Shown one piece after another: positions 5,250-49,624 of a DNA stretch of 64,000 nucleotides. Numbering within the stretch: the stretch's first letter is position 1; each line of letters starts with the position of its first letter. The translations under genes were made by a program, and so were the position numbers. This stretch comes from Escherichia coli (GTDB lineage: Bacteria; Pseudomonadota; Gammaproteobacteria; Enterobacterales; Enterobacteriaceae), in NCBI RefSeq assembly GCF_003334355.1, contig NZ_QOWP01000006.1; one strand, 5' to 3'. The notes below the pieces were generated by a model, which made no database searches, was not told the origin of the DNA, and was given only the letters and a program-made list of their open reading frames with translations.

Positions 5250-5291
5250 GTCATACCACTCGCCTGATTATTTTTAGCTATGTTGGATTTT

Positions 5292-5318
5292 GCCACGGTT
5301 TATACCGTGGCTTTTTTT
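5292..5318 (+). terminator. Rho-independent terminator of allDCE operon
   Basis: GCCACGGT-TTAT-ACCGTGGC hairpin followed by TTTTTTT. Confidence 0.7.
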
Positions 5319-5326
5319 GTAACATT

Positions 5327-5476: not shown

Positions 5477-6622
5477 TCAGTTTTTAATTCCCTGACCTAT
5501 TTTAATGGCGCAGGCAATATTTCGCGCGCTGTTGAAGAGATTGATTTCACCGCTGGCGAGTACTTCGGCTAAAGGTGCCAGACGTGGCAAAATGCTGAAT
5601 ACCGCATCAATGCCATACTGGTGCACCACTTCCACGCCATCACCCAATACGCCAGCAATCCCAATCACCGGTACATTAAACTGCTTCGCCACCGACGCCA
5701 CACCCAGCGGCGCTTTACCGCCTGCCGTTTGCGAGTCGATGCGCCCTTCCCCGGTAATCACCAGTGCTGCGCCCTGCACTGCCTGCGCAAGATTGACCGC
5801 ATTCAACACAATCTCAATACCTGGTTTAATATCCGCATTGAGAAATACCGCCGCCGCAATACCCATACCGCCCGCAGCGCCGCCGCCCGCCATCTGGCAG
5901 ACGTTGATTTCAGTTTGCTGTTGTAAAACACGGGCGTAATTTTGCAGCCCCTGTTCCAGCTCTTCGACCATTTCCGGCGTTGCCCCTTTTTGCGGGCCAA
6001 ACACCGCCGCCGCGCCGCGTGCCCCTACCAGCGGGTTATCAACGTCACATGCTACTTCAATATGGCAATTCGCCAGACGCGGATCGCATTCATCCATCTC
6101 AATGCTTGCCACGCGCGCTAAATTACCGCCGTTAGCCACCAGCACCTGACCGTCGGCATCAAGGAAACGCACACCGAGCGCCTGCGCCATGCCCATACCG
6201 CCGTCGACCGTCGCACTGCCGCCAATGCCGAGAATAATATGGCGAATGCCGTTATCCAGCGCATGACGAATTAACTCCCCCGTACCAAAACTGGAGGCCA
6301 GCAACGGATTACGCTTTTCAGGCGCGACCAGCATCAGGCCACTTGCTGCCGCCATCTCAATCACCGCCGTTTTCCCGTCGCCGGTAAGGCCATAAAAAGC
6401 ATTCACTGTTTCGCCCATCGGCCCGCAGACTTCAAGCGTCACGATGTTGCCGCCCGTCGCGGCGACCATCGCATCCACCGTTCCTTCGCCGCCATCCGCT
6501 ATCGGCAAACAGATATAGTGCGCATCGGGAAAGAGGGTCGAAAACCCGGCTTTAATTGCCTGGCAACATTTTTCTGCACTTAAGCTCTCTTTAAAAGAGT
6601 CTGGCGCAATGACAATCTTCAT
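5477..6622 (-). CDS. glxK: Glycerate 2-kinase GlxK (381 aa)
   Basis: [30 protein letters not shown]...; start trimmed to the Met that gives K-12 length. Confidence 0.9.
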
Positions 6623-6643: not shown

Positions 6644-7945
6644 TTATTCGATGCGTTCCCACGGAATAAGATTATCCATAAGAACAGCCAGTAAAATCCC
6701 GACCAATAAGCCGTTACTGAGCAGAGGACGCAGCGTTAATGGAAGGTCTTGCAGATACACAGGCGGTAATGCCATTAAAAATATGCCGACAAATAACGGC
6801 AATGCGAGTCGATAAATATTGCGAGCGGTAAAGGTTATTTGCTGGCTAAACACCAGCGCGGAAAAGAGTAAAGGCAGATAAGAAACCAGCATGACCGCGC
6901 TACTCACGGGTAAAGGGATACTGCAAAACAGTCGTGTGAGTGCCGGAACCAGCGCCACCAGCAGGCAAATAACGCTGCCATAAATAAACGAACGCCGCGT
7001 GTAATCGCCAGTCTGGGTTAATAAACCAATGGATGAAACAAACGGTGAAAATGGAATTACCGCCAGCGGTACGGTTATCAGCGTCATAAATCCGGTCGCC
7101 ACAAAGCTACGACGATAACGCGTATTCCCCGCGCCCTGCTGCGGATAAAAAACATCCGTGCCCCGAATCGCACCGTAGGTATTGCTGATATTCACCAGAC
7201 CTGTAATCACCGCCGTCAGAATAATTCCCGGCGACAAAGCACCGCCACTGCCGAGCGGGAACCACTGCCAGTGCAACTCACCGGAGAGCGAATGCGAAGA
7301 AGGAAAGCAAAAGTACCACAACAACCAGCCGGTTATCGTACCGACCAGCAGGCCATAACGGGCAAAACGTTGCGGCAGAAAGATAATCATCGCCAGTACC
7401 AGGCACATCACCGCCACCGAGAGCGCGAACGGTGGTAACTGAATTTTAAAATTTGGGTCGGCTATGCCAAACGGCAGCCCGAGCATACCTTTGAAAAAGA
7501 TAGTGGTCAGCTGCGCGCCCAGCATCAACATAAACAAGACCATCACCGACGGCGTAAATAACCGTGCCAGGCGATGGCCTAATCCGCTAAAACCAATCAA
7601 CATCGTCAGCACGCCGGAGAGTGCAATCCCCACCGCCAGACTGGTAGCGATATCGTTGATCGGTGTCCCGCGCGATGCTTCGCCAAGGGTGATAGTAAGG
7701 ATGGTTCCCCACCACAGGCCACCCGGCCCTTCCATAATAGCGCGACGATGACCGCAGAACGCCTGAGCGAAGCAGGCCAGTGCGGTAGCAAGAAAAGCAT
7801 ATTGCGTGAGCGTAAGCAGGCTACTTTGCGGCAACTGAAAAGCAGAAAGTAGCGTAGGAGGAACCACAACCGTGTTGCAAAAAATAAAGAAAAACCACTG
7901 AAATCCTGATAACAGGCTTTCGCGGCTGACTGCAAAATTGAACAT
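6644..7945 (-). CDS. ybbY: Putative purine/allantoin-pathway permease YbbY (433 aa)
   Basis: Polytopic membrane ORF; ATG at 7943-7945 with AAGGTG 5 nt upstream (the track ORF starts at a GTG 2 codons earlier). Confidence 0.85.
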   Translation of the reverse strand: MFNFAVSRESLLSGFQWFFFIFCNTVVVPPTLLSAFQLPQSSLLTLTQYAFLATALACFAQAFCGHRRAIMEGPGGLWWGTILTITLGEASRGTPINDIATSLAVGIALSGVLTMLIGFSGLGHRLARLFTPSVMVLFMLMLGAQLTTIFFKGMLGLPFGIADPNFKIQLPPFALSVAVMCLVLAMIIFLPQRFARYGLLVGTITGWLLWYFCFPSSHSLSGELHWQWFPLGSGGALSPGIILTAVITGLVNISNTYGAIRGTDVFYPQQGAGNTRYRRSFVATGFMTLITVPLAVIPFSPFVSSIGLLTQTGDYTRRSFIYGSVICLLVALVPALTRLFCSIPLPVSSAVMLVSYLPLLFSALVFSQQITFTARNIYRLALPLFVGIFLMALPPVYLQDLPLTLRPLLSNGLLVGILLAVLMDNLIPWERIE

Positions 7946-17268: not shown

Positions 17269-18378
<1,110 letters not shown>

Positions 18379-18441
18379 TGGGCGGTATTCTGAAACGGCG
18401 ATTGTCGTGAGAACAGAATGGTTGCACCAGAATACAGATAT

Positions 18442-18478
18442 AAAAAAACCGACATGACAGTCGGTTTTTTTATTTTTT
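18442..18478. terminator. Bidirectional rho-independent terminator (selU on +; candidate sRNA on -)
   Basis: AAAAAAA-ACCGAC-ATGACA-GTCGGT-TTTTTTTATTTTTT; A-tract before and T-tract after the hairpin. Confidence 0.75.
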
Positions 18479-18530
18479 CCGCCCAAGACTTGGTGGTTCC
18501 GGGCAGAAATGAAACAGTCCTCATCTAGCA
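18442..18530 (-). ncRNA. Candidate antitoxin sRNA (~88 nt); its 5' end is antisense to a 16-nt element that recurs in the toxin leader
   Basis: Minus-strand promoter (-35 TTGAAT, 17-bp spacer, -10 TATAAT) puts the start near 18529-18533; transcript begins with the reverse complement of CAGTCCTCATCTAGCA (18515-18530) and ends at the bidirectional terminator. Confidence 0.4.
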
Positions 18531-18535
18531 AGTGA

Positions 18536-18564
18536 ATTATAAGTCAGGATGCCTACATATTCAA
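18536..18564 (-). promoter_or_regulatory. Predicted sigma-70 promoter of the candidate sRNA
   Basis: Minus-strand -35 TTGAAT (18559-18564), 17-bp spacer, perfect -10 TATAAT (18536-18541). Confidence 0.45.
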
Positions 18565-18680
18565 ACAGCTATGTTGGCGATACAATCCCGACGCTAGTAG
18601 TGATACTGCCTCAAGGGATTACCGCAGTGCGGAAAAGTACTTTTAAGTCCTGGTCAGGATACAGGTGGTGCTGATTCTGG

Positions 18681-18689
18681 TGCTCTAAT
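18681..18689 (+). promoter_or_regulatory. Predicted extended -10 promoter (TGcTCTAAT) for the toxin mRNA
   Basis: TGn + TCTAAT on the plus strand; predicted start near 18696, just 5' of the second 16-nt copy (18701-18716). Confidence 0.3.
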
Positions 18690-18789
18690 TTGGAGAGAGG
18701 CAGTCCTCATCTAGCACATGAAGAAAATCATAGTTACAGGCAACGTAAGGGTAAGCTGTGATTGTCTTTCTCCCTTAAGGGAGCAACGG

Positions 18790-18873
18790 ATGAAAACTTT
18801 TCTCGATAAAGTTCTCATCGTTCTTAAGGCGCTAATCGCGCTGCTGGAACTGATCCGTCAGTTTATTGAATAA
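18790..18873 (+). CDS. Candidate type I toxin: 27-aa hydrophobic peptide MKTFLDKVLIVLKALIALLELIRQFIE (DinQ-like)
   Basis: ATG 18790 with AAGGGAG SD 6 nt upstream; SD lies in a CTCCC/GGGAG hairpin; single predicted TM helix; own terminator downstream; core ALIALLELIR recalled as shared with DinQ. Confidence 0.5.
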   Translation: MKTFLDKVLIVLKALIALLELIRQFIE

Positions 18874-18893
18874 CTGAGGAAACGTAGCTAAGG

Positions 18894-18920
18894 CCGAAGG
18901 TTTACCACCTTCGGTCTTTA
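18894..18920 (+). terminator. Terminator of the small toxin ORF
   Basis: CCGAAGGT-TTACC-ACCTTCGG hairpin followed by TCTTTA. Confidence 0.6.
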
Positions 18921-18944
18921 AAAAAACCGACATGACAGTTGGTT
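18920..18944. repeat. Second copy of the 25-nt selU-terminator motif (one mismatch)
   Basis: AAAAAAACCGACATGACAGTTGGTT versus AAAAAAACCGACATGACAGTCGGTT at 18442-18466. Confidence 0.7.
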
Positions 18945-18976
18945 TCATATTTATTGCCAAAATGCACACTGTTCAT

Positions 18977-19074
<98 letters not shown>

Positions 19075-19090
19075 AATCTAACACCTGTCA

Positions 19091-21505
19091 TCACCCCGCA
19101 AACTGCCTGAACAGCGCCTTACCCTTAACCAGTCTCGCGCCCAGCCAGCCGCCGAAAAGCGACAGCAGCAGCGCACCGCTGCACGGCAGAACAATCCACA
19201 ATCGCCAGTCTGGCTCCCACGGGAAATCAAACACTTTCGCCTGCAACACTGCCAGTGCCGTTTCCGCACCAATTGCGGCCACCAGGCCGGAAACAAACCC
19301 AAGCATGGCGAACTCACACCACAATGTCGTGCGCAGCAGTTTTTTCCCCGCACCGAGTGTGCGCCATACCACCAGCTCCTGATGACGCTGGCGCATTCCC
19401 ACCTGCACCTGTGCCAGCAACAGCAACATACCGCAGGCGGTGACCAGCACCACCATCACCTCCAGCGCCCGACTTACCTGCTCCAGCACCTGACCGACCT
19501 GTTTTAAAATCGCGCCAATATCTAACAGGCTAATGGTCGGGAACTGGCGGTTGAGTTGCGTCAACATGCCGTTGCCATTCTCCCAGCGGAAACTGGTAAG
19601 CCAGCTCTGCGGTTGCCCGTCTAATGCCCCTTCCGGGAAAATAAAATAGAAATTAGGCCGCAGACTTTCCCAGTCCACTTTGCGCAGGCTGGTCACTTTA
19701 GCGCGGAACTCCTGGGTATCGCCCATAAAAGTCACGGTATCACCGAGGGCAACGTTTAAGCGTTTCGCCAGCCCCTCTTCCATCGACACTTCATCGGCTT
19801 TTGGCGGCCAGTTACCGGCGACAATCGGATTATGATCGGGCCGCGTATTTTGCCAGGTAAGATTGAGTTCGCGATTAAGCGCCTCATCTTCATTACCTTC
19901 TGTCGGCTTATCGTTAATCGCCGTCAGCCGCGCCCGCACTACCGGATAAAATGATTCCGGGACTATATGATGTTCCGCGAGGAACGCTTTTAGCGGTGCT
20001 ACCTGTTCTGTGGCGATGTTAATTAAAAAGTAGTTCGGGCTTTCTGGCGGTAGCTGCTGCTGCCAGCGGTCGAGCAGATCGCCACGCAATACCAGCAACA
20101 GCGCCAGCAGCATAAAGGAGAGCGAAAATGCCGAAAGCTGACTTAACGTTGACCACGGCTGACGTAACAGGCGGCTAACCGCCAGGCGCAGAGGCAGCGA
20201 TTTCAGCGTCATGCGGCGAAGTACATTCAGCAGCATCCAGCCCAGCACACCGCACAGCAAAGCCAGTACTACCGCGCCCGCCAGCACCGCCCAAAGCAGC
20301 ATGCTGCCACCCATTAATCCGGCGAGCAGCAGCACAACCACCACACTGACAATCGGCAGATAAAACTTCAGCGGCCAGACGTTCGCTACCACATCATTAC
20401 GTAATACGCGTAAAGGCTGCGTTGCCAGCAACAAGCGATATGGTCGTAGCCCCACCAGCAGCGAGATGACCGTCATGGTGCCAAGCGCCCACAGCCACGG
20501 CCAGAGGCTGGCTGGCGGTAGTGCAGCAGGCAGAACGGGCTTGAGCAGCACCATCAACACGTTTTCGAACAACAGACCTATGGCCCCACCGGTAACGGCT
20601 GAAAGCGTCAGCACCATCAACCACTGACCGACGATTAGCTTACGCAGTTGCGCTCGCCCTGCCCCCAGCGTTTTGAGGATCGCCACCAGATCGTAGCGAC
20701 TGCGACAGTAATGATTCATCGCTACCGCCACCGCTGCCACTGCCAGCAGCAAGGTCAGAAGCGCCGAAAGCAGCAGGAACTGTTGCGAGCGTTCCATCGA
20801 TCGCCCCAGCGCGCCTTCGTCCTGTTCCAGACCGTACCAGCGTTGTTCGGGTTTAAGCTGAGGTAACAACCATTTCTCATAGCCGTCGAGCTGGTTCTCG
20901 TTGCCGCCGAATTTATAACGCCAGGTGACCCGACTCCCCGGCTGCACGGCTCCGGTTTTATCGACATCCGCCAGATTCATCATCAGACGCGGAGCCATCT
21001 GGAAGGGGTTAAAACCGGAATCCGGTTCCTGAATCACTTCTCCGGCAATCCGCAAGGTGGCATCGCCCACGTCAATGGTGTCGCCCGTTTTCAGGTTAAG
21101 CAGTGCCATCAGGCGTGGGGCCAGCAATACGCTGCCCGCCTGCGGTTTCAGGCCAGGGGGATTAGTTTGCAGATCGCCATACATCGGGTAGATATCATCC
21201 ACCGCTTTGACGTTCGCCAGCTGCGGTGTGTCGCCTGCAAAGGTCATTGTGGCGAAAGTCAGCTGCTTGCCGACTTTCAGGCCGCGCTTTTGCGCTTCCT
21301 CCAGCCACGCTTGCGGCACTTCGCGTGAACTGCGCAACGCCCGATCGCCCGCCATAAACTCACGGCTTTGCTGGCTTAAGCCCTTCTCCATGCGATCGCT
21401 GATATTGCCCAGCGCCAGCACGCAGGCCACCGCCAGGCTTAGCGCCAGCCAGACAATTAATAGCGACGGCGAACGCCATTCGCGCCAGAACCAACGTGCA
21501 ATCAT
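19091..21505 (-). CDS. ybbP: ABC transporter permease YbbP (804 aa, FtsX-like)
   Basis: 804-aa ORF, start overlaps ybbA stop. Confidence 0.9.
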   Translation of the reverse strand: MIARWFWREWRSPSLLIVWLALSLAVACVLALGNISDRMEKGLSQQSREFMAGDRALRSSREVPQAWLEEAQKRGLKVGKQLTFATMTFAGDTPQLANVKAVDDIYPMYGDLQTNPPGLKPQAGSVLLAPRLMALLNLKTGDTIDVGDATLRIAGEVIQEPDSGFNPFQMAPRLMMNLADVDKTGAVQPGSRVTWRYKFGGNENQLDGYEKWLLPQLKPEQRWYGLEQDEGALGRSMERSQQFLLLSALLTLLLAVAAVAVAMNHYCRSRYDLVAILKTLGAGRAQLRKLIVGQWLMVLTLSAVTGGAIGLLFENVLMVLLKPVLPAALPPASLWPWLWALGTMTVISLLVGLRPYRLLLATQPLRVLRNDVVANVWPLKFYLPIVSVVVVLLLAGLMGGSMLLWAVLAGAVVLALLCGVLGWMLLNVLRRMTLKSLPLRLAVSRLLRQPWSTLSQLSAFSLSFMLLALLLVLRGDLLDRWQQQLPPESPNYFLINIATEQVAPLKAFLAEHHIVPESFYPVVRARLTAINDKPTEGNEDEALNRELNLTWQNTRPDHNPIVAGNWPPKADEVSMEEGLAKRLNVALGDTVTFMGDTQEFRAKVTSLRKVDWESLRPNFYFIFPEGALDGQPQSWLTSFRWENGNGMLTQLNRQFPTISLLDIGAILKQVGQVLEQVSRALEVMVVLVTACGMLLLLAQVQVGMRQRHQELVVWRTLGAGKKLLRTTLWCEFAMLGFVSGLVAAIGAETALAVLQAKVFDFPWEPDWRLWIVLPCSGALLLSLFGGWLGARLVKGKALFRQFAG

Positions 21506-33739: not shown

Positions 33740-34534
33740 ATGGATCTGTTGTACCGGGTAAAAACGCTTTGGGCCGCGCTGCGCGGTAATCATTACACCT
33801 GGCCTGCCATCGATATCACCCTCCCCGGCAATCGCCATTTTCATCTGATTGGCAGTATTCATATGGGTAGCCACGATATGGCTCCCCTGCCCACCCGTTT
33901 GCTCAAAAAGCTCAAAAACGCCGATGCGCTGATCGTCGAGGCGGATGTTTCCACCAGCGATACGCCTTTTGCTAATTTGCCTGCCTGCGAGGCGCTGGAA
34001 GAGCGCATTAGCGAGGAGCAACTCCAAAACCTGCAGCACATTAGCCAGGAGATGGGCATTTCTCCCTCACTCTTTTCTACCCAACCGCTGTGGCAAATCG
34101 CGATGGTTCTTCAGGCGACGCAGGCACAAAAACTGGGGCTGCGGGCAGAATACGGTATCGATTACCAGCTATTGCAGGCGGCGAAGCAACAACATAAACC
34201 CGTGATTGAACTGGAAGGGGCTGAAAACCAGATTGCCATGTTGCTCCAGCTCCCTGACAAAGGACTGGCGCTGCTGGACGATACGCTGACCCACTGGCAT
34301 ACCAACGCACGGTTGCTGCAACAAATGATGAGCTGGTGGCTGAATGCACCGCCGCAAAATAATGATATAACGCTGCCCAATACGTTCAGTCAGTCGCTGT
34401 ACGATGTGCTGATGCATCAGCGAAATCTCGCCTGGCGGGATAAATTACGCGCCATGCCGCCGGGGCGATATGTGGTCGCGGTCGGTGCACTACACCTGTA
34501 TGGAGAAGGGAATTTGCCGCAAATGTTGCGCTAA
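33740..34534 (+). CDS. ybaP: TraB-family protein YbaP (264 aa)
   Basis: 264-aa ORF divergent from ybaQ. Confidence 0.85.
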   Translation: MDLLYRVKTLWAALRGNHYTWPAIDITLPGNRHFHLIGSIHMGSHDMAPLPTRLLKKLKNADALIVEADVSTSDTPFANLPACEALEERISEEQLQNLQHISQEMGISPSLFSTQPLWQIAMVLQATQAQKLGLRAEYGIDYQLLQAAKQQHKPVIELEGAENQIAMLLQLPDKGLALLDDTLTHWHTNARLLQQMMSWWLNAPPQNNDITLPNTFSQSLYDVLMHQRNLAWRDKLRAMPPGRYVVAVGALHLYGEGNLPQMLR

Positions 34535-34616
34535 AAAAATGGCCAATATCGCTATTGGCCCGTCAAAGAGGAATTTCATTTTTTTATTATTATGCCGTCA
34601 CTTTAAGCGACGGTGT
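34533..34616 (-). ncRNA. chiX: ChiX (MicM/SroB) Hfq-dependent sRNA, ~84 nt
   Basis: Minus strand reads ACACCGTCGCTTAAAGTGACGGCATAATAATAAAAAAATGAAATTCCTCTTTGACGGGCCAATAGCGATATTGGCCATTTTTTT, matching recalled ChiX; ybaP-ybaK intergenic as in K-12. Confidence 0.85.
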
Positions 34617-47692: not shown

Positions 47693-49624
47693 TCAAATGG
47701 GGCGGATACTGTCTTCATCCAGCTCCGCATCGAAGAATCGACGCAGGGTCTGAATATTATTATCCGCAATAATGGACTCGCGCGCCTGCGCAAGTTTTTC
47801 TTCGTATATCGCCTGACGCCATTCCAGCGGCGTACGCACCGCGGGATTATCATCTTCAACGATAGTCAGTTCAACCGTTGAACCTTTTAACGTGCTCAAC
47901 GCTTCAGCCAGTTTTTGCTGTGCACCGCGGTTGTTCAAATGCCGCTGAGAGGTGCGCAAATGCAGACATACTGCGTTGTCGCTCTCCTCTTTCCAGGCAT
48001 TTAAGGCCACCTGTTCGACCAGTTTTGGTAGCGAAAGTTGGCTAACCTGTGCCGCCCACGCGTCGCGCTCAATGGCTTCTGCCGCCAGCTTCGCCGCCAG
48101 TTCCGGCGTTTTTTCATGTTCCAGCGCTTTTTTCAGCGCCTTCGGCGTGGCGACCACTTCTTTTTGCTGCATCACCGGAGTGGTCGCCTTCCAGCGATAC
48201 GCTTCTTTTTTAGCTGGCGCTTTTTCCAGCGCCGATGGCACCGGACGCGCCTGAACGCGATCGGTGACCGAAGCCAGTCTTTCCAGCGCAGCGTTATTCA
48301 CCGGCCGCGCGCGGGTAGCGGCTGCCGGTTCACTCTTTTTTGCTTTGGTTGCTCCCTGCACGCGCTGCAACTGCTGGCGCGCCGCCAGCACCTGGCTGGT
48401 GGTTTCCGGGAGCGGTACAGTCGGAGCCTGCTGCGGCGCTGATTGCGGTTGCGGCGGCACCTGGGTTGGCGTCATTACTGCCGTTGGTGCGACAGGTGCA
48501 AAGGACTGGCGTGGCACTTCTGGCTCAGGCAGCGGCATACGCGGATGGAATGCCAGCGCGCGCAGCAGCGTCATCTCAACGCCCATGCGGCGGTCCGGCG
48601 CATACGGTAATTCTTTGCGACCAATCAACAGCGTCTGATAGTAAAGCTGAATATCCGTCGGCGGTATGGTGCGCGCCAGTTCACGCATCCGCAGCTCGAT
48701 GGCGGCCATGTCGTTGCCAAGTGCAGCAGGCGAAAGTTGTACCATCGCAATACGATGCAACAGACCGAGCATTTCCACCAGCAACGCTTCCCACTCGATA
48801 CCACGGGCAGCGGCTTCATTAATCAGCGCCATTACGCGCTCGCCGTTGGCCTCGACCATCGCTTCAACCAGCGACAGCGCCTGATCGTCGTCAAGCGTAC
48901 CCAGCATCGCACTGACCGCCTGGGTTGAAACCTGGCCGTCACCGCTGGCAATCGCCTGGTCGGTCAGACTTAAGGCATCTCGCAGGCTGCCTTCAGCGGC
49001 GCGCGCCAGCAATTGCAACGCCCGCGGCTCGTGAGCGATATGTTCTTCGTTGAGGATGTGCTCAAGCTGATGGCGAATTTGCTCGACATCCAGCGCCTTG
49101 AGATGAAATTGCAGACAGCGTGACAAAATCGTCACCGGCAATTTCTGTGGATCGGTCGTCGCCAGCAGAAACTTAACGTGCTCCGGCGGCTCTTCAAGGG
49201 TTTTTAACAGTGCGTTAAAGCTGTGGCGCGACAGCATATGCACTTCGTCGATCAGATAAACTTTGAAACGACCACGCGCCGGAGCGTACTGGACGTTATC
49301 CAGCAGGTCGCGGGTATCTTCAACTTTGGTGCGCGAGGCGGCGTCGATTTCAATCAGATCGACAAAGCGCCCCTGCTCGATTTCACGACAGTTATCGCAC
49401 ACGCCGCACGGCGTCGCGGTAATGCCGGTTTCGCAGTTTAGCCCCTTCGCCAGCAGTCGGGCGATAGAGGTTTTTCCGACGCCACGGGTGCCGGAAAAAA
49501 GATAAGCATGATGAATACGCCCTAACGACAAGCCGTTCGCCAGTGCGGTCAGCACATGTTCCTGGCCGACGACGTCAGCAAAGGTTTGTGGGCGCCATTT
49601 TCGGGCTAAGACCTGATAACTCAT
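47693..49624 (-). CDS. dnaX: DNA polymerase III tau subunit DnaX (643 aa); gamma made by frameshift
   Basis: AAA+ Walker A GTRGVGKTS; 643 aa. Confidence 0.97.
   Translation of the reverse strand: MSYQVLARKWRPQTFADVVGQEHVLTALANGLSLGRIHHAYLFSGTRGVGKTSIARLLAKGLNCETGITATPCGVCDNCREIEQGRFVDLIEIDAASRTKVEDTRDLLDNVQYAPARGRFKVYLIDEVHMLSRHSFNALLKTLEEPPEHVKFLLATTDPQKLPVTILSRCLQFHLKALDVEQIRHQLEHILNEEHIAHEPRALQLLARAAEGSLRDALSLTDQAIASGDGQVSTQAVSAMLGTLDDDQALSLVEAMVEANGERVMALINEAAARGIEWEALLVEMLGLLHRIAMVQLSPAALGNDMAAIELRMRELARTIPPTDIQLYYQTLLIGRKELPYAPDRRMGVEMTLLRALAFHPRMPLPEPEVPRQSFAPVAPTAVMTPTQVPPQPQSAPQQAPTVPLPETTSQVLAARQQLQRVQGATKAKKSEPAAATRARPVNNAALERLASVTDRVQARPVPSALEKAPAKKEAYRWKATTPVMQQKEVVATPKALKKALEHEKTPELAAKLAAEAIERDAWAAQVSQLSLPKLVEQVALNAWKEESDNAVCLHLRTSQRHLNNRGAQQKLAEALSTLKGSTVELTIVEDDNPAVRTPLEWRQAIYEEKLAQARESIIADNNIQTLRRFFDAELDEDSIRPI
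48301..48354 (-). other. dnaX: dnaX programmed -1 frameshift cassette (A AAA AAG, downstream stem-loop, upstream AGGGAG)
   Basis: Plus strand shows CTTTTTT at 48335-48341; palindrome CCGGCCGCGCGCGGGTAGCGGCTGCCGG at 48301-48328; -1 frame gives ...KKE then UGA. Confidence 0.85.

Follow-up and report, generated by a model that had tools for sequence, protein, structure and literature searches.

A DinQ-family toxin gene and a divergent AgrB-family RNA gene lie between mnmH and ybbP

The Escherichia coli DNA analyzed here is a 64,000-nt stretch of contig NZ_QOWP01000006.1, referred to below as the window. In the spacer between mnmH (selU) and ybbP, it contains a short open reading frame (ORF) of the DinQ toxin family and a gene for a small RNA (sRNA) of the AgrB family. 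The sRNA gene is divergent from the toxin gene and does not overlap it; the sRNA and the predicted toxin mRNA start back to back, 65 nt apart. An initial annotation, made from the sequence alone, had proposed that this place holds a type I toxin-antitoxin module resembling dinQ, its antitoxin being a divergent RNA that acts in trans. The proposal is supported by the curated models NF041472 and RF02891, by homology with E. coli K-12, and by covariation of the sRNA-target duplex. At the level of sequence, the locus comprises a DinQ-family gene, a divergent AgrB-family sRNA gene preceded by a promoter and followed by a terminator, a leader that is collinear with the dinQ leader, and complementarity of the sRNA 5′ end to this leader. 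Features are listed in Table 1. The whole spacer is 100% identical in E. coli strain 214-4.

Table 1. Features of the mnmH-ybbP spacer and its flanks (window coordinates).
Feature	Position	Strand	Basis or remark
mnmH/selU	17284-18378	+	Left flank of the module spacer, E. coli chromosome
Module segment, 570 bp	18393-18962		Holds the whole module; absent in UTI89 (spacer reading and annotation)
Bidirectional intrinsic terminator, perfect 14 bp	18440-18473		Homologous to the AgrB terminator in the Rfam alignment
AgrB-family sRNA gene, ~87 nt	18442-18528	−	Rfam RF02891; 5′ end by homology with the annotated K-12 agrB 5′ end
sRNA promoter, TTGAAT-17-TATAAT	18536-18564	−	Promoter scan, 10 of 12 matches; layout like that of K-12 agrB
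Predicted toxin −10 box, TACAAT	18581-18586	+	Inferred; aligned to TATAAT/TATGAT of 14 other loci
Predicted primary toxin mRNA, ~333 nt (5′ untranslated region ~197 nt)	18593-18925	+	15-locus MAFFT alignment; blastn to K-12 dinQ
Leader element 1 equivalent, ACUGCCUC	18605-18612	+	Inferred; pairs with GAGGCAGU (18697-18704) in the full-length minimum free energy fold
Homologue of the dinQ +44 processing region, UUUUAAGUCCUGGUC	18641-18655	+	Block AAGTCCTGG aligned in all loci
sRNA target in leader	18691-18714	+	In-register pairing and family covariation; overlaps element 2 (GGAGAGAGG, 18692-18700)
Leader elements 3 and 4	18760-18783	+	Palindrome; anti–Shine-Dalgarno CUCCC 18770-18774 and Shine-Dalgarno GGGAG 18779-18783, hairpin loop UUAA
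Toxin ORF, 27 amino acids, DinQ family, MKTFLDKVLIVLKALIALLELIRQFIE	18790-18873	+	NF041472, RefSeq name, identity to K-12 DinQ
Toxin mRNA terminator hairpin, CUUUAA tail	18890-18918	+	Palindrome; aligned with GGCC...GGCCTTTAA terminators of all loci
Right copy of 40-nt direct repeat	18919-18958		83% identical to 18441-18480; the two copies bracket the module
ybbP	19091-21505	−	Right flank of the module spacer

The toxin ORF is the 3′ portion of a longer in-frame ORF (18718-18873). Its 27 codons, its Shine-Dalgarno (SD) sequence AAGGGAG (18777-18783, separated from the ATG by 6 nt), and its own terminator are all present as initially annotated, and the terminator hairpin aligns with the terminator of the family. 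The encoded peptide matches the NCBIfam model NF041472 (toxin_DinQ) with 40.9 bits (cutoff 30) over profile positions 1 to 22 of 22. Of 19 residues compared, 15 are identical to those of K-12 DinQ; they include the stretch ALIALLELIR, which the initial annotation had correctly given as a core common to DinQ. The peptide has the family form, a hydrophobic helical peptide of ~26 to 29 amino acids (aa) with the core (A/V)LIALLELIR, and aligns across six genera. Membership in DqlB (NCBIfam NF041473) was considered and rejected: the score, 24.5 bits, is below the cutoff of 35, and the peptide has 27 rather than 31 aa and is without the DqlB insert. Five other strains have C at position 18915, whereas T is found in the window and in strain 214-4, so that a G-C pair of the terminator stem becomes G-U.

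At exactly this site, the RefSeq annotation pipeline PGAP names the ORF “dinQ: damage-inducible type I toxin DinQ” (WP_349808740.1), and the same ORF is annotated as dinQ in 1315 of 5426 complete E. coli genomes; the initial annotation, which knew of no annotated gene here, was mistaken on this point. A 27-aa form and an over-extended 51-aa form are found in public protein databases on at least 1000 contigs, including those of Shigella, in older records as “hypothetical protein” and in newer ones as “DinQ.” The RefSeq ORF calls are inconsistent, the same gene being given as 27 aa (WP_349808740.1) or 51 aa (WP_001308457.1). Likewise, for the 26-aa DinQ-type toxins encoded by Citrobacter and Erwinia plasmids (IncX7 and IncFII), the annotated ORFs have 78 aa and span the whole leader. 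No antitoxin RNA was annotated in the RefSeq carrier records examined.

The sRNA gene was recovered with the Rfam AgrB model RF02891 in both a local scan and a scan of the whole window. The match covers minus-strand positions 18528 to 18440 and model positions 1 to 84 of 84, with a score of 53.6 bits (gathering score 40). The minus-strand sRNA that had been proposed to end at the selU terminator thus corresponds to an above-threshold family match, from 18528 to 18442. The 87-nt sRNA is predicted to fold with −31.4 kcal/mol (z = −4.8 relative to shuffled sequences) into a single-stranded 5′ pairing tail, an internal stem-loop, and a terminator hairpin. The promoter proposed for it (18564-18536) is present in a position like that of K-12 agrB. 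Its −10 box ends 7 nt short of the predicted sRNA 5′ end, and K-12 agrB has the matching layout TTGCAA-17-TAGTAT, 7 nt, TTAGAT. Taken by itself, the minus-strand promoter match is at chance level (1 site versus 1.0 ± 1.2 expected). The terminator at 18440-18473 serves the sRNA (minus strand) as well as mnmH/selU (plus strand).

This terminator is overlapped by the left copy (18441-18480) of a 40-nt direct repeat, which the initial annotation had not listed. The right copy, in the same orientation as the left one, corresponds to the last 40 nt of the AgrB gene. Since Citrobacter amalonaticus (L028) has three AgrB genes, two upstream of the toxin and one downstream (7749-7836), the right repeat is probably the remnant 3′ end of another AgrB copy. 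The downstream gene of C. amalonaticus would pair only poorly with the toxin leader (−27 kcal/mol). Read on the minus strand, the right repeat can also terminate transcription downstream of ybbP.

The 5′ end of the sRNA is complementary to the toxin leader

The 16-nt element CAGTCCTCATCTAGCA is present twice, at 18515-18530 and 18701-18716, as had been noted; the repeat extends to 22 nt with 91% identity. Nucleotides 1 to 18 of the sRNA form 18 unbroken pairs with 18714-18697, of which 16 are Watson-Crick pairs and 2 are G-U pairs. When nucleotides 1 to 24 are placed in register with 18714-18691, the 18 pairs are followed by one mismatch and 4 further pairs. The end of the target site lies 76 nt before the start codon in the window, as it does in K-12.

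The pairing was assessed across the family using an alignment in which the sRNA 5′ ends of 15 loci were joined to their cognate targets. At 19 of the 24 duplex pairs, both sides vary and yet remain paired. Overall, 92.8% of cells are paired compared to ~40% when the partners are slid by 1 to 3 columns, and none of 500 shuffles attained the observed values. The target sites were found by a duplex search, which favors pairing; still, the end of the site falls 73 to 79 nt before the start codon at every locus.

The toxin leader is collinear with that of dinQ

A pattern scan of one genome per species yielded 18 loci, one of which is a chance match within a long ORF; nearly every locus adjoins an sRNA gene recognized by the Rfam AgrB model. 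Fifteen toxin transcripts, those of the window and of 14 other dinQ/dql loci, were aligned with MAFFT. The K-12 landmarks (+1, +44, and elements 1 to 4) were placed on the K-12 sequence using the numbering given in PMC5066626. The window is collinear with all 14 other loci from the −10 box through the terminator. Compared by blastn to K-12 dinQ-agrA-agrB, it is 70% identical over 218 nt of leader and ORF and 72 to 73% identical over each agr gene.

The predicted toxin mRNA starts at about G18593, the +1 region lying 6 nt beyond the −10 box TACAAT; the toxin −35 region overlaps the sRNA −35 box, back to back. The element 1 equivalent is located at +13 to +20 (element 1 of dinQ is U16-C28). Farther downstream is the homologue of the +44 region, and its conserved sequence block predicts that processing of the +44 type would take place near ~18641. 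This block is followed, in order, by GGTGGTGC, the sRNA site, GTGACAGGCA, the anti-SD/SD hairpin, the ORF, and the GGAAACGTAGCTAAGGCC...GGCCTTTAA terminator. The hairpin of elements 3 and 4 aligns with the 3:4 hairpin of dinQ; in the alternative structure, 18760-18773 pairs with 18692-18705, and the SD is freed.

The initial annotation had read TGcTCTAAT (18681-18689) as an extended −10 promoter of the toxin mRNA and had put the second copy of the 16-nt repeat at the mRNA 5′ end. The string exists, but it aligns with a conserved leader motif, GGTGCTCTGG, within the 5′ untranslated region (UTR). Therefore, the sRNA site is internal, at about +99 to +122 of a ~197-nt leader, rather than at the mRNA 5′ end, and the 15-locus alignment led us to reject 18681-18689 as the main toxin promoter. 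For dinQ, PMC5066626 places the sRNA site at G88-A119 of the leader.

A search of 18380-19090 with the LexA box consensus CTGT-N8-ACAG, allowing at most one mismatch, gave no match; it was a consensus search only. The K-12 LexA box, TACTGTATGATTATCCAGT, aligns with GGCGATACAATCCCGACG in the window, and the K-12 operator over the −10 box is found only in the Escherichia dinQ sequences of the alignment. SOS control of the window toxin was rejected on the absence of a consensus box from this interval. The window copy is thus probably not SOS-induced, despite its RefSeq product name, and because the LexA box is absent, “damage-inducible” is probably the wrong name for this paralogue. The module scores above the cutoffs of the curated toxin and sRNA families and lacks LexA control, the feature for which DinQ is called damage-inducible.

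The leader is predicted to switch between two folds

In the predicted fold of the full-length RNA, ACUGCCUC (18605-18612) pairs with GAGGCAGU (18697-18704), and the SD is shut in a CUCCC-UUAA-GGGAG hairpin. When the RNA is truncated at 18641, GGAGAGAGGCAGUC (18692-18705) is paired to GAUUGUCUUUCUCC (18760-18773) instead, and when the sRNA site is blocked in folding, the SD hairpin returns. With elements 1 to 4 at 18605-18612, 18692-18705, 18760-18774, and 18779-18783, truncation switches the fold from 1:2 plus 3:4 to 2:3. These computed folds reproduce the published dinQ model qualitatively.

By homology with dinQ/agrB, whose mechanism has been described (PMC3567139, Weel-Sneve 2013; PMC5066626, Kristiansen 2016), and with plasmid dqlB/agrB, the module would work as follows. 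A sigma-70 promoter with its −10 box at 18581-18586 would produce a ~333-nt primary mRNA that is translationally inert, its 5′ end being paired with the 18697-18704 region and its SD locked in the CUCCC/GGGAG hairpin. Loss of ~48 nt from the 5′ end would allow GGAGAGAGG... (from 18692) to pair with ...CUUUCUCC (to 18773), which would open the SD, and the peptide could then be made. It would enter the inner membrane and be toxic if overproduced. The ~87-nt sRNA would bind 18691-18714 and displace the opening pairing so that the SD hairpin re-forms, and the sRNA-mRNA duplex would be a substrate of RNase III. For plasmid dqlB/agrB, toxicity and its neutralization by agrB through base pairing have been demonstrated experimentally (PMC12365149, pOXA-48; PMC12317039, IncX3).

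Relation to known dinQ and dql loci

The module is already known in the sense that its toxin is named in RefSeq, its RNA is found by an Rfam model, and its family and mechanism are published. As described in Kristiansen 2016 (PMC5066626), which lists 14 dql genes, the dinQ-like (dql) family comprises the groups dqlA and dqlB, occurs on chromosomes and plasmids of Enterobacteriaceae, and in some strains is present alongside dinQ. Predicted antisense RNAs of dql loci are listed in T1TAdb (PMC8594479). Apart from the 2016 family paper, we found no publication that treats dqlA or this particular locus; not readable in that paper were the peptide figure and supplements.

The canonical K-12 locus, dinQ-agrA-agrB (gor-arsR), has in common with the window the 27-aa peptide with its ALIALLELIR core and a divergent upstream AgrB-type sRNA. 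It also has a leader of similar length (~195 nt) with the +44 block, elements 1 to 4, and the SD hairpin, and a homologous terminator. The two differ in several respects: K-12 has two agr genes and the window one; a LexA box covers the −10 region in K-12 and none is found in the window; and the sRNA-target duplex is ~32 to 34 bp in K-12 dinQ compared to 18 to 23 bp in the window. In addition, the window toxin has an ATG start, a four-residue N-terminal extension (MKTF), and the C terminus RQFIE rather than RFLLQLLN. Last, the window module is accessory (24% of genomes), whereas the canonical dinQ type is nearly universal (5416 of 5426).

Three peptide groups can be distinguished: DinQ proper (Escherichia, Pantoea, and Serratia), the 31-aa DqlB, and a group formed by Serratia oryzae and Serratia sp. 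H1w, which has the N-terminal extension K/E-T-F/L-I/L-D-K-V-L-I-V-L-K and is closest to the window peptide. The nearest relatives found are the loci of S. oryzae (L018) and Serratia sp. H1w (L022), with the peptides (V)KTLIDKVLIVLKALVALLELIRQFID and METFIDKVLIVLKALVALLELIRRFIDR. Their mRNAs are ~66% identical to that of the window, the best of all loci, and the sRNA seed is similar (GGACTG..TTCAT). Their duplexes, however, are longer and near-perfect (−56 to −67 kcal/mol), and the genus is a different one. The two Serratia loci probably belong to the published dqlA group; that the window locus is DqlA as well is a guess from its Serratia-like peptide.

Plasmid dqlB/agrB has the same architecture and leader as the window, with an AgrB-family sRNA that pairs with the leader, but DqlB has 31 aa with an inserted AVAALANALIA, the module is a plasmid-borne addiction module, and its DNA is ~55 to 70% identical to the window. 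A module of this enterobacterial-plasmid type, dqlB/AgrB, was also found on a 2.6-kb contig of Haemophilus sputorum CCUG 13788 (L014), where it may be a plasmid fragment or a contamination. A more distant likeness exists to tisB/istR-1, zorO/orzO, and shoB/ohsC, which, according to PMC5066626, share the general layout: a long, structured leader, pairing of the sRNA at a site upstream of the ribosome binding site, and activating 5′ processing. Their peptides and RNAs are unrelated to those of the window (Rfam OrzO-P scores 24 bits versus a gathering score of 60).

The mnmH-ybbP site has at least three states in E. coli

In strain UTI89, the mnmH-ybbP spacer is an “empty” 58 bp (6083-6140 in its own coordinates) that joins the position equivalent to 18392 directly to that of 18963; the module is therefore a 570-bp presence/absence segment. 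In K-12, an rhsD-ybbC-ylbH-ybbD-ylbI-ylbG element replaces 18381-19084. Module remnants were sought in K-12, and none were found, homology ending at 18380 and restarting at 19085. The complete module is present in 1315 of the 5426 complete E. coli genomes (24%), and the K-12–type ybbP-rhsD junction is present in 2867. The remaining ~1240 genomes are empty or have another arrangement at the site. Since the spacer between mnmH and ybbP is uninterrupted in all 1315 carriers, the module and RhsD alternate at this site, as the initial annotation had suggested they might. In the carrier genomes sampled, there are two matches, one of them at the canonical dinQ locus (dinQ-agrAB); a dinQ-type match is present in 5416 of the 5426 genomes, so sequence of the canonical type is nearly universal.

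A plasmid source of the module was considered and rejected. PLSDB matches of at least 99% occur only in records of 1.2 to 4.9 Mb, which are chromosomes filed as plasmids, and true plasmids in PLSDB reach at most ~70% identity to the module. The chromosome-sized records with this locus include CP061270.1, NZ_CP141089.1, and NZ_CP134663.1.

Between the module and ybbP lies a cluster of palindromes of the repetitive extragenic palindromic (REP) type (18963-19075) with sub-threshold Rfam matches to naRNA4 and ES036. The cluster is not present in UTI89, where the sequence is unrelated, and it was the source of 185,451 matching places in the first megablast search. In strain HS-02 (L008, 6055-6426), the mnmH-ybbP spacer is noisy, rich in G/C homopolymers, and faintly similar to the AgrB region, and ybbP is truncated; this spacer looks like an assembly artefact.

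Variation of the module among strains

The module with the left spacer (18379-18962) was compared to mnmH (17284-18378) and ybbP (19091-20400) in six carriers (L003, L004, L007, L031, L032, and L033). Divergence of the module among the six is 0 to 0.7%, while the flanking mnmH and ybbP sequences diverge from the window by up to 3 to 5%. The shift is abrupt at the mnmH stop codon, and all six match the window at 100% over the 62-nt left spacer. Nearly all also have the sRNA gene and 197-nt leader of the window unchanged, the exceptions being a single-nucleotide polymorphism in the sRNA gene of L031 and a deletion allele in L004 and L031. In E2348/69, the ORF has two changes, both synonymous, so the protein is the same. 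The low diversity may reflect either strong constraint or recent horizontal spread.

Two kinds of disrupted alleles were found. In the EPEC E2348/69 derivative (L003, 1397-2443), the back-to-back promoters are separated by an IS481-family insertion at 18564-18570 that has duplicated 7 bp of target (AACAGCT); it leaves the sRNA promoter intact and displaces the predicted toxin −35 region. A 108-bp deletion (18702-18809) is present in two unrelated isolates, NMBU-W13E19 (L004) from Norwegian surface water and AHB30 (L031) from a UK blood culture. Both isolates keep the sRNA gene but have lost the SD, the start codon with the first six codons, and part of the sRNA site. PGAP still calls a 25-aa “dinQ” in one of the two deletion isolates.

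Interpretation and alternative explanations

Taken together, the results make it very probable that the dinQ/agrB type I toxin-antitoxin system of E. coli has a complete accessory paralogue at the window locus, a member of the published dql family with functional steps assigned by homology. Several observations weigh against this interpretation. The window duplex is among the shortest and weakest sampled (18 unbroken pairs, or 23 if one mismatch is allowed, and −46 kcal/mol), compared to 30 to 36 bp and −55 to −67 kcal/mol at most other loci; K-12 AgrA has −44 kcal/mol, and two dqlB loci have about −42 kcal/mol. K-12 AgrA, whose duplex energy is close to that of the window, is reported in PMC5066626 not to repress dinQ. 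The toxin promoter has a poor −35 region, and no plus-strand promoter was called in the scan. The predicted SD accessibility changes little between the full-length, truncated, and sRNA-blocked forms of the window RNA (0.11, 0.23, and 0.19), although the changes are equally small in the validated K-12 control (0.38, 0.45, and 0.40). Last, the existence of a natural toxin-null deletion allele, together with a module split by an insertion sequence elsewhere, means that the toxin is dispensable.

If the locus is active, its main role could still be other than addiction, exerted through other sRNA targets, cross-talk with dinQ, or modulation of the membrane at native expression levels. We consider such a role unlikely. 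It would accord with the description of DinQ as a modulator of membrane-dependent activities (PMC3567139) and with the presence of canonical dinQ-agrAB in the sampled carriers. In a cross-pair comparison, the window sRNA forms a 12-bp run with the K-12 dinQ target (−28 kcal/mol). However, the cognate window duplex in the same comparison (−34 kcal/mol, 18-bp run) is stronger than any cross pair. The energy of the cross pair equals that of AgrA on dinQ, a pairing reported as ineffective in PMC5066626. Cross-talk with canonical AgrA/AgrB was rejected, since the cross duplexes are weaker than the cognate ones in both directions.

It is quite unlikely that the locus is a decaying relic, with recognizable DinQ and AgrB genes but defunct toxin expression or sRNA control, and is kept by hitch-hiking. 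Decay would be in line with a duplex shorter than those of other family loci and near the non-repressing AgrA in energy, with the missing LexA box and the weak −35 region, with the G-U pair in the window terminator stem (G-C in other strains), and with the 108-bp deletion and the IS481-family insertion. Against it, all signals in the window are intact: both −10 boxes, the SD, the start codon, the anti-SD, both terminators, and the 18-bp seed. The same peptide is encoded in strains with 3 to 5% flank divergence, and all ORF changes seen are synonymous. The complementarity of OhsC/ShoB, OrzO/ZorO, and IstR-1/TisB is likewise in the range of 18 to 21 bp.

The initially annotated architecture, with an mRNA start at ~18696, the sRNA target at the 5′ end, and a ~95-nt leader, is very improbable. 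TGcTCTAAT is a good extended −10 box and its K-12 counterpart, TGCTCTGGC, is not one, so a window-specific internal promoter is conceivable, but the string aligns with the GGTGCTCTGG motif in all 14 other loci; the −10 box, +1 region, and element 1 are all conserved ~100 nt further upstream; and such a transcript would be without half of element 2 and without part of the sRNA site (18691-18695), its SD hairpin staying closed.

With the locus read as an accessory dinQ/agrB paralogue, a further step can be suggested only tentatively, and we regard it as unlikely: as an accessory type I unit outside SOS control, the 570-bp cassette may have begun to spread recently, recombining between lineages into an mnmH-ybbP hotspot. 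Its near-zero diversity would then be the mark of a recent sweep rather than of constraint, its short seed and lack of LexA control would give it a regulation distinct from that of canonical dinQ, and its role could be stabilization of the hotspot or phage defense.

As a discovery, the locus carries little weight, its toxin, RNA model, and family mechanism being already public. It is relevant, however, to work on type I toxins, persistence, and sRNA cross-talk in non–K-12 strains since the module is present in roughly one in four complete E. coli genomes, with canonical dinQ alongside it in the carriers sampled. The three-state polymorphism of the site and the low diversity of the module also make it a small, tractable case for the spread of chromosomal type I modules.

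Elsewhere in the window, further above-threshold Rfam matches correspond to the DnaX frameshift element (48296-48360), sroB (34533-34616), and STnc480 (5256-5322), as expected for this region.

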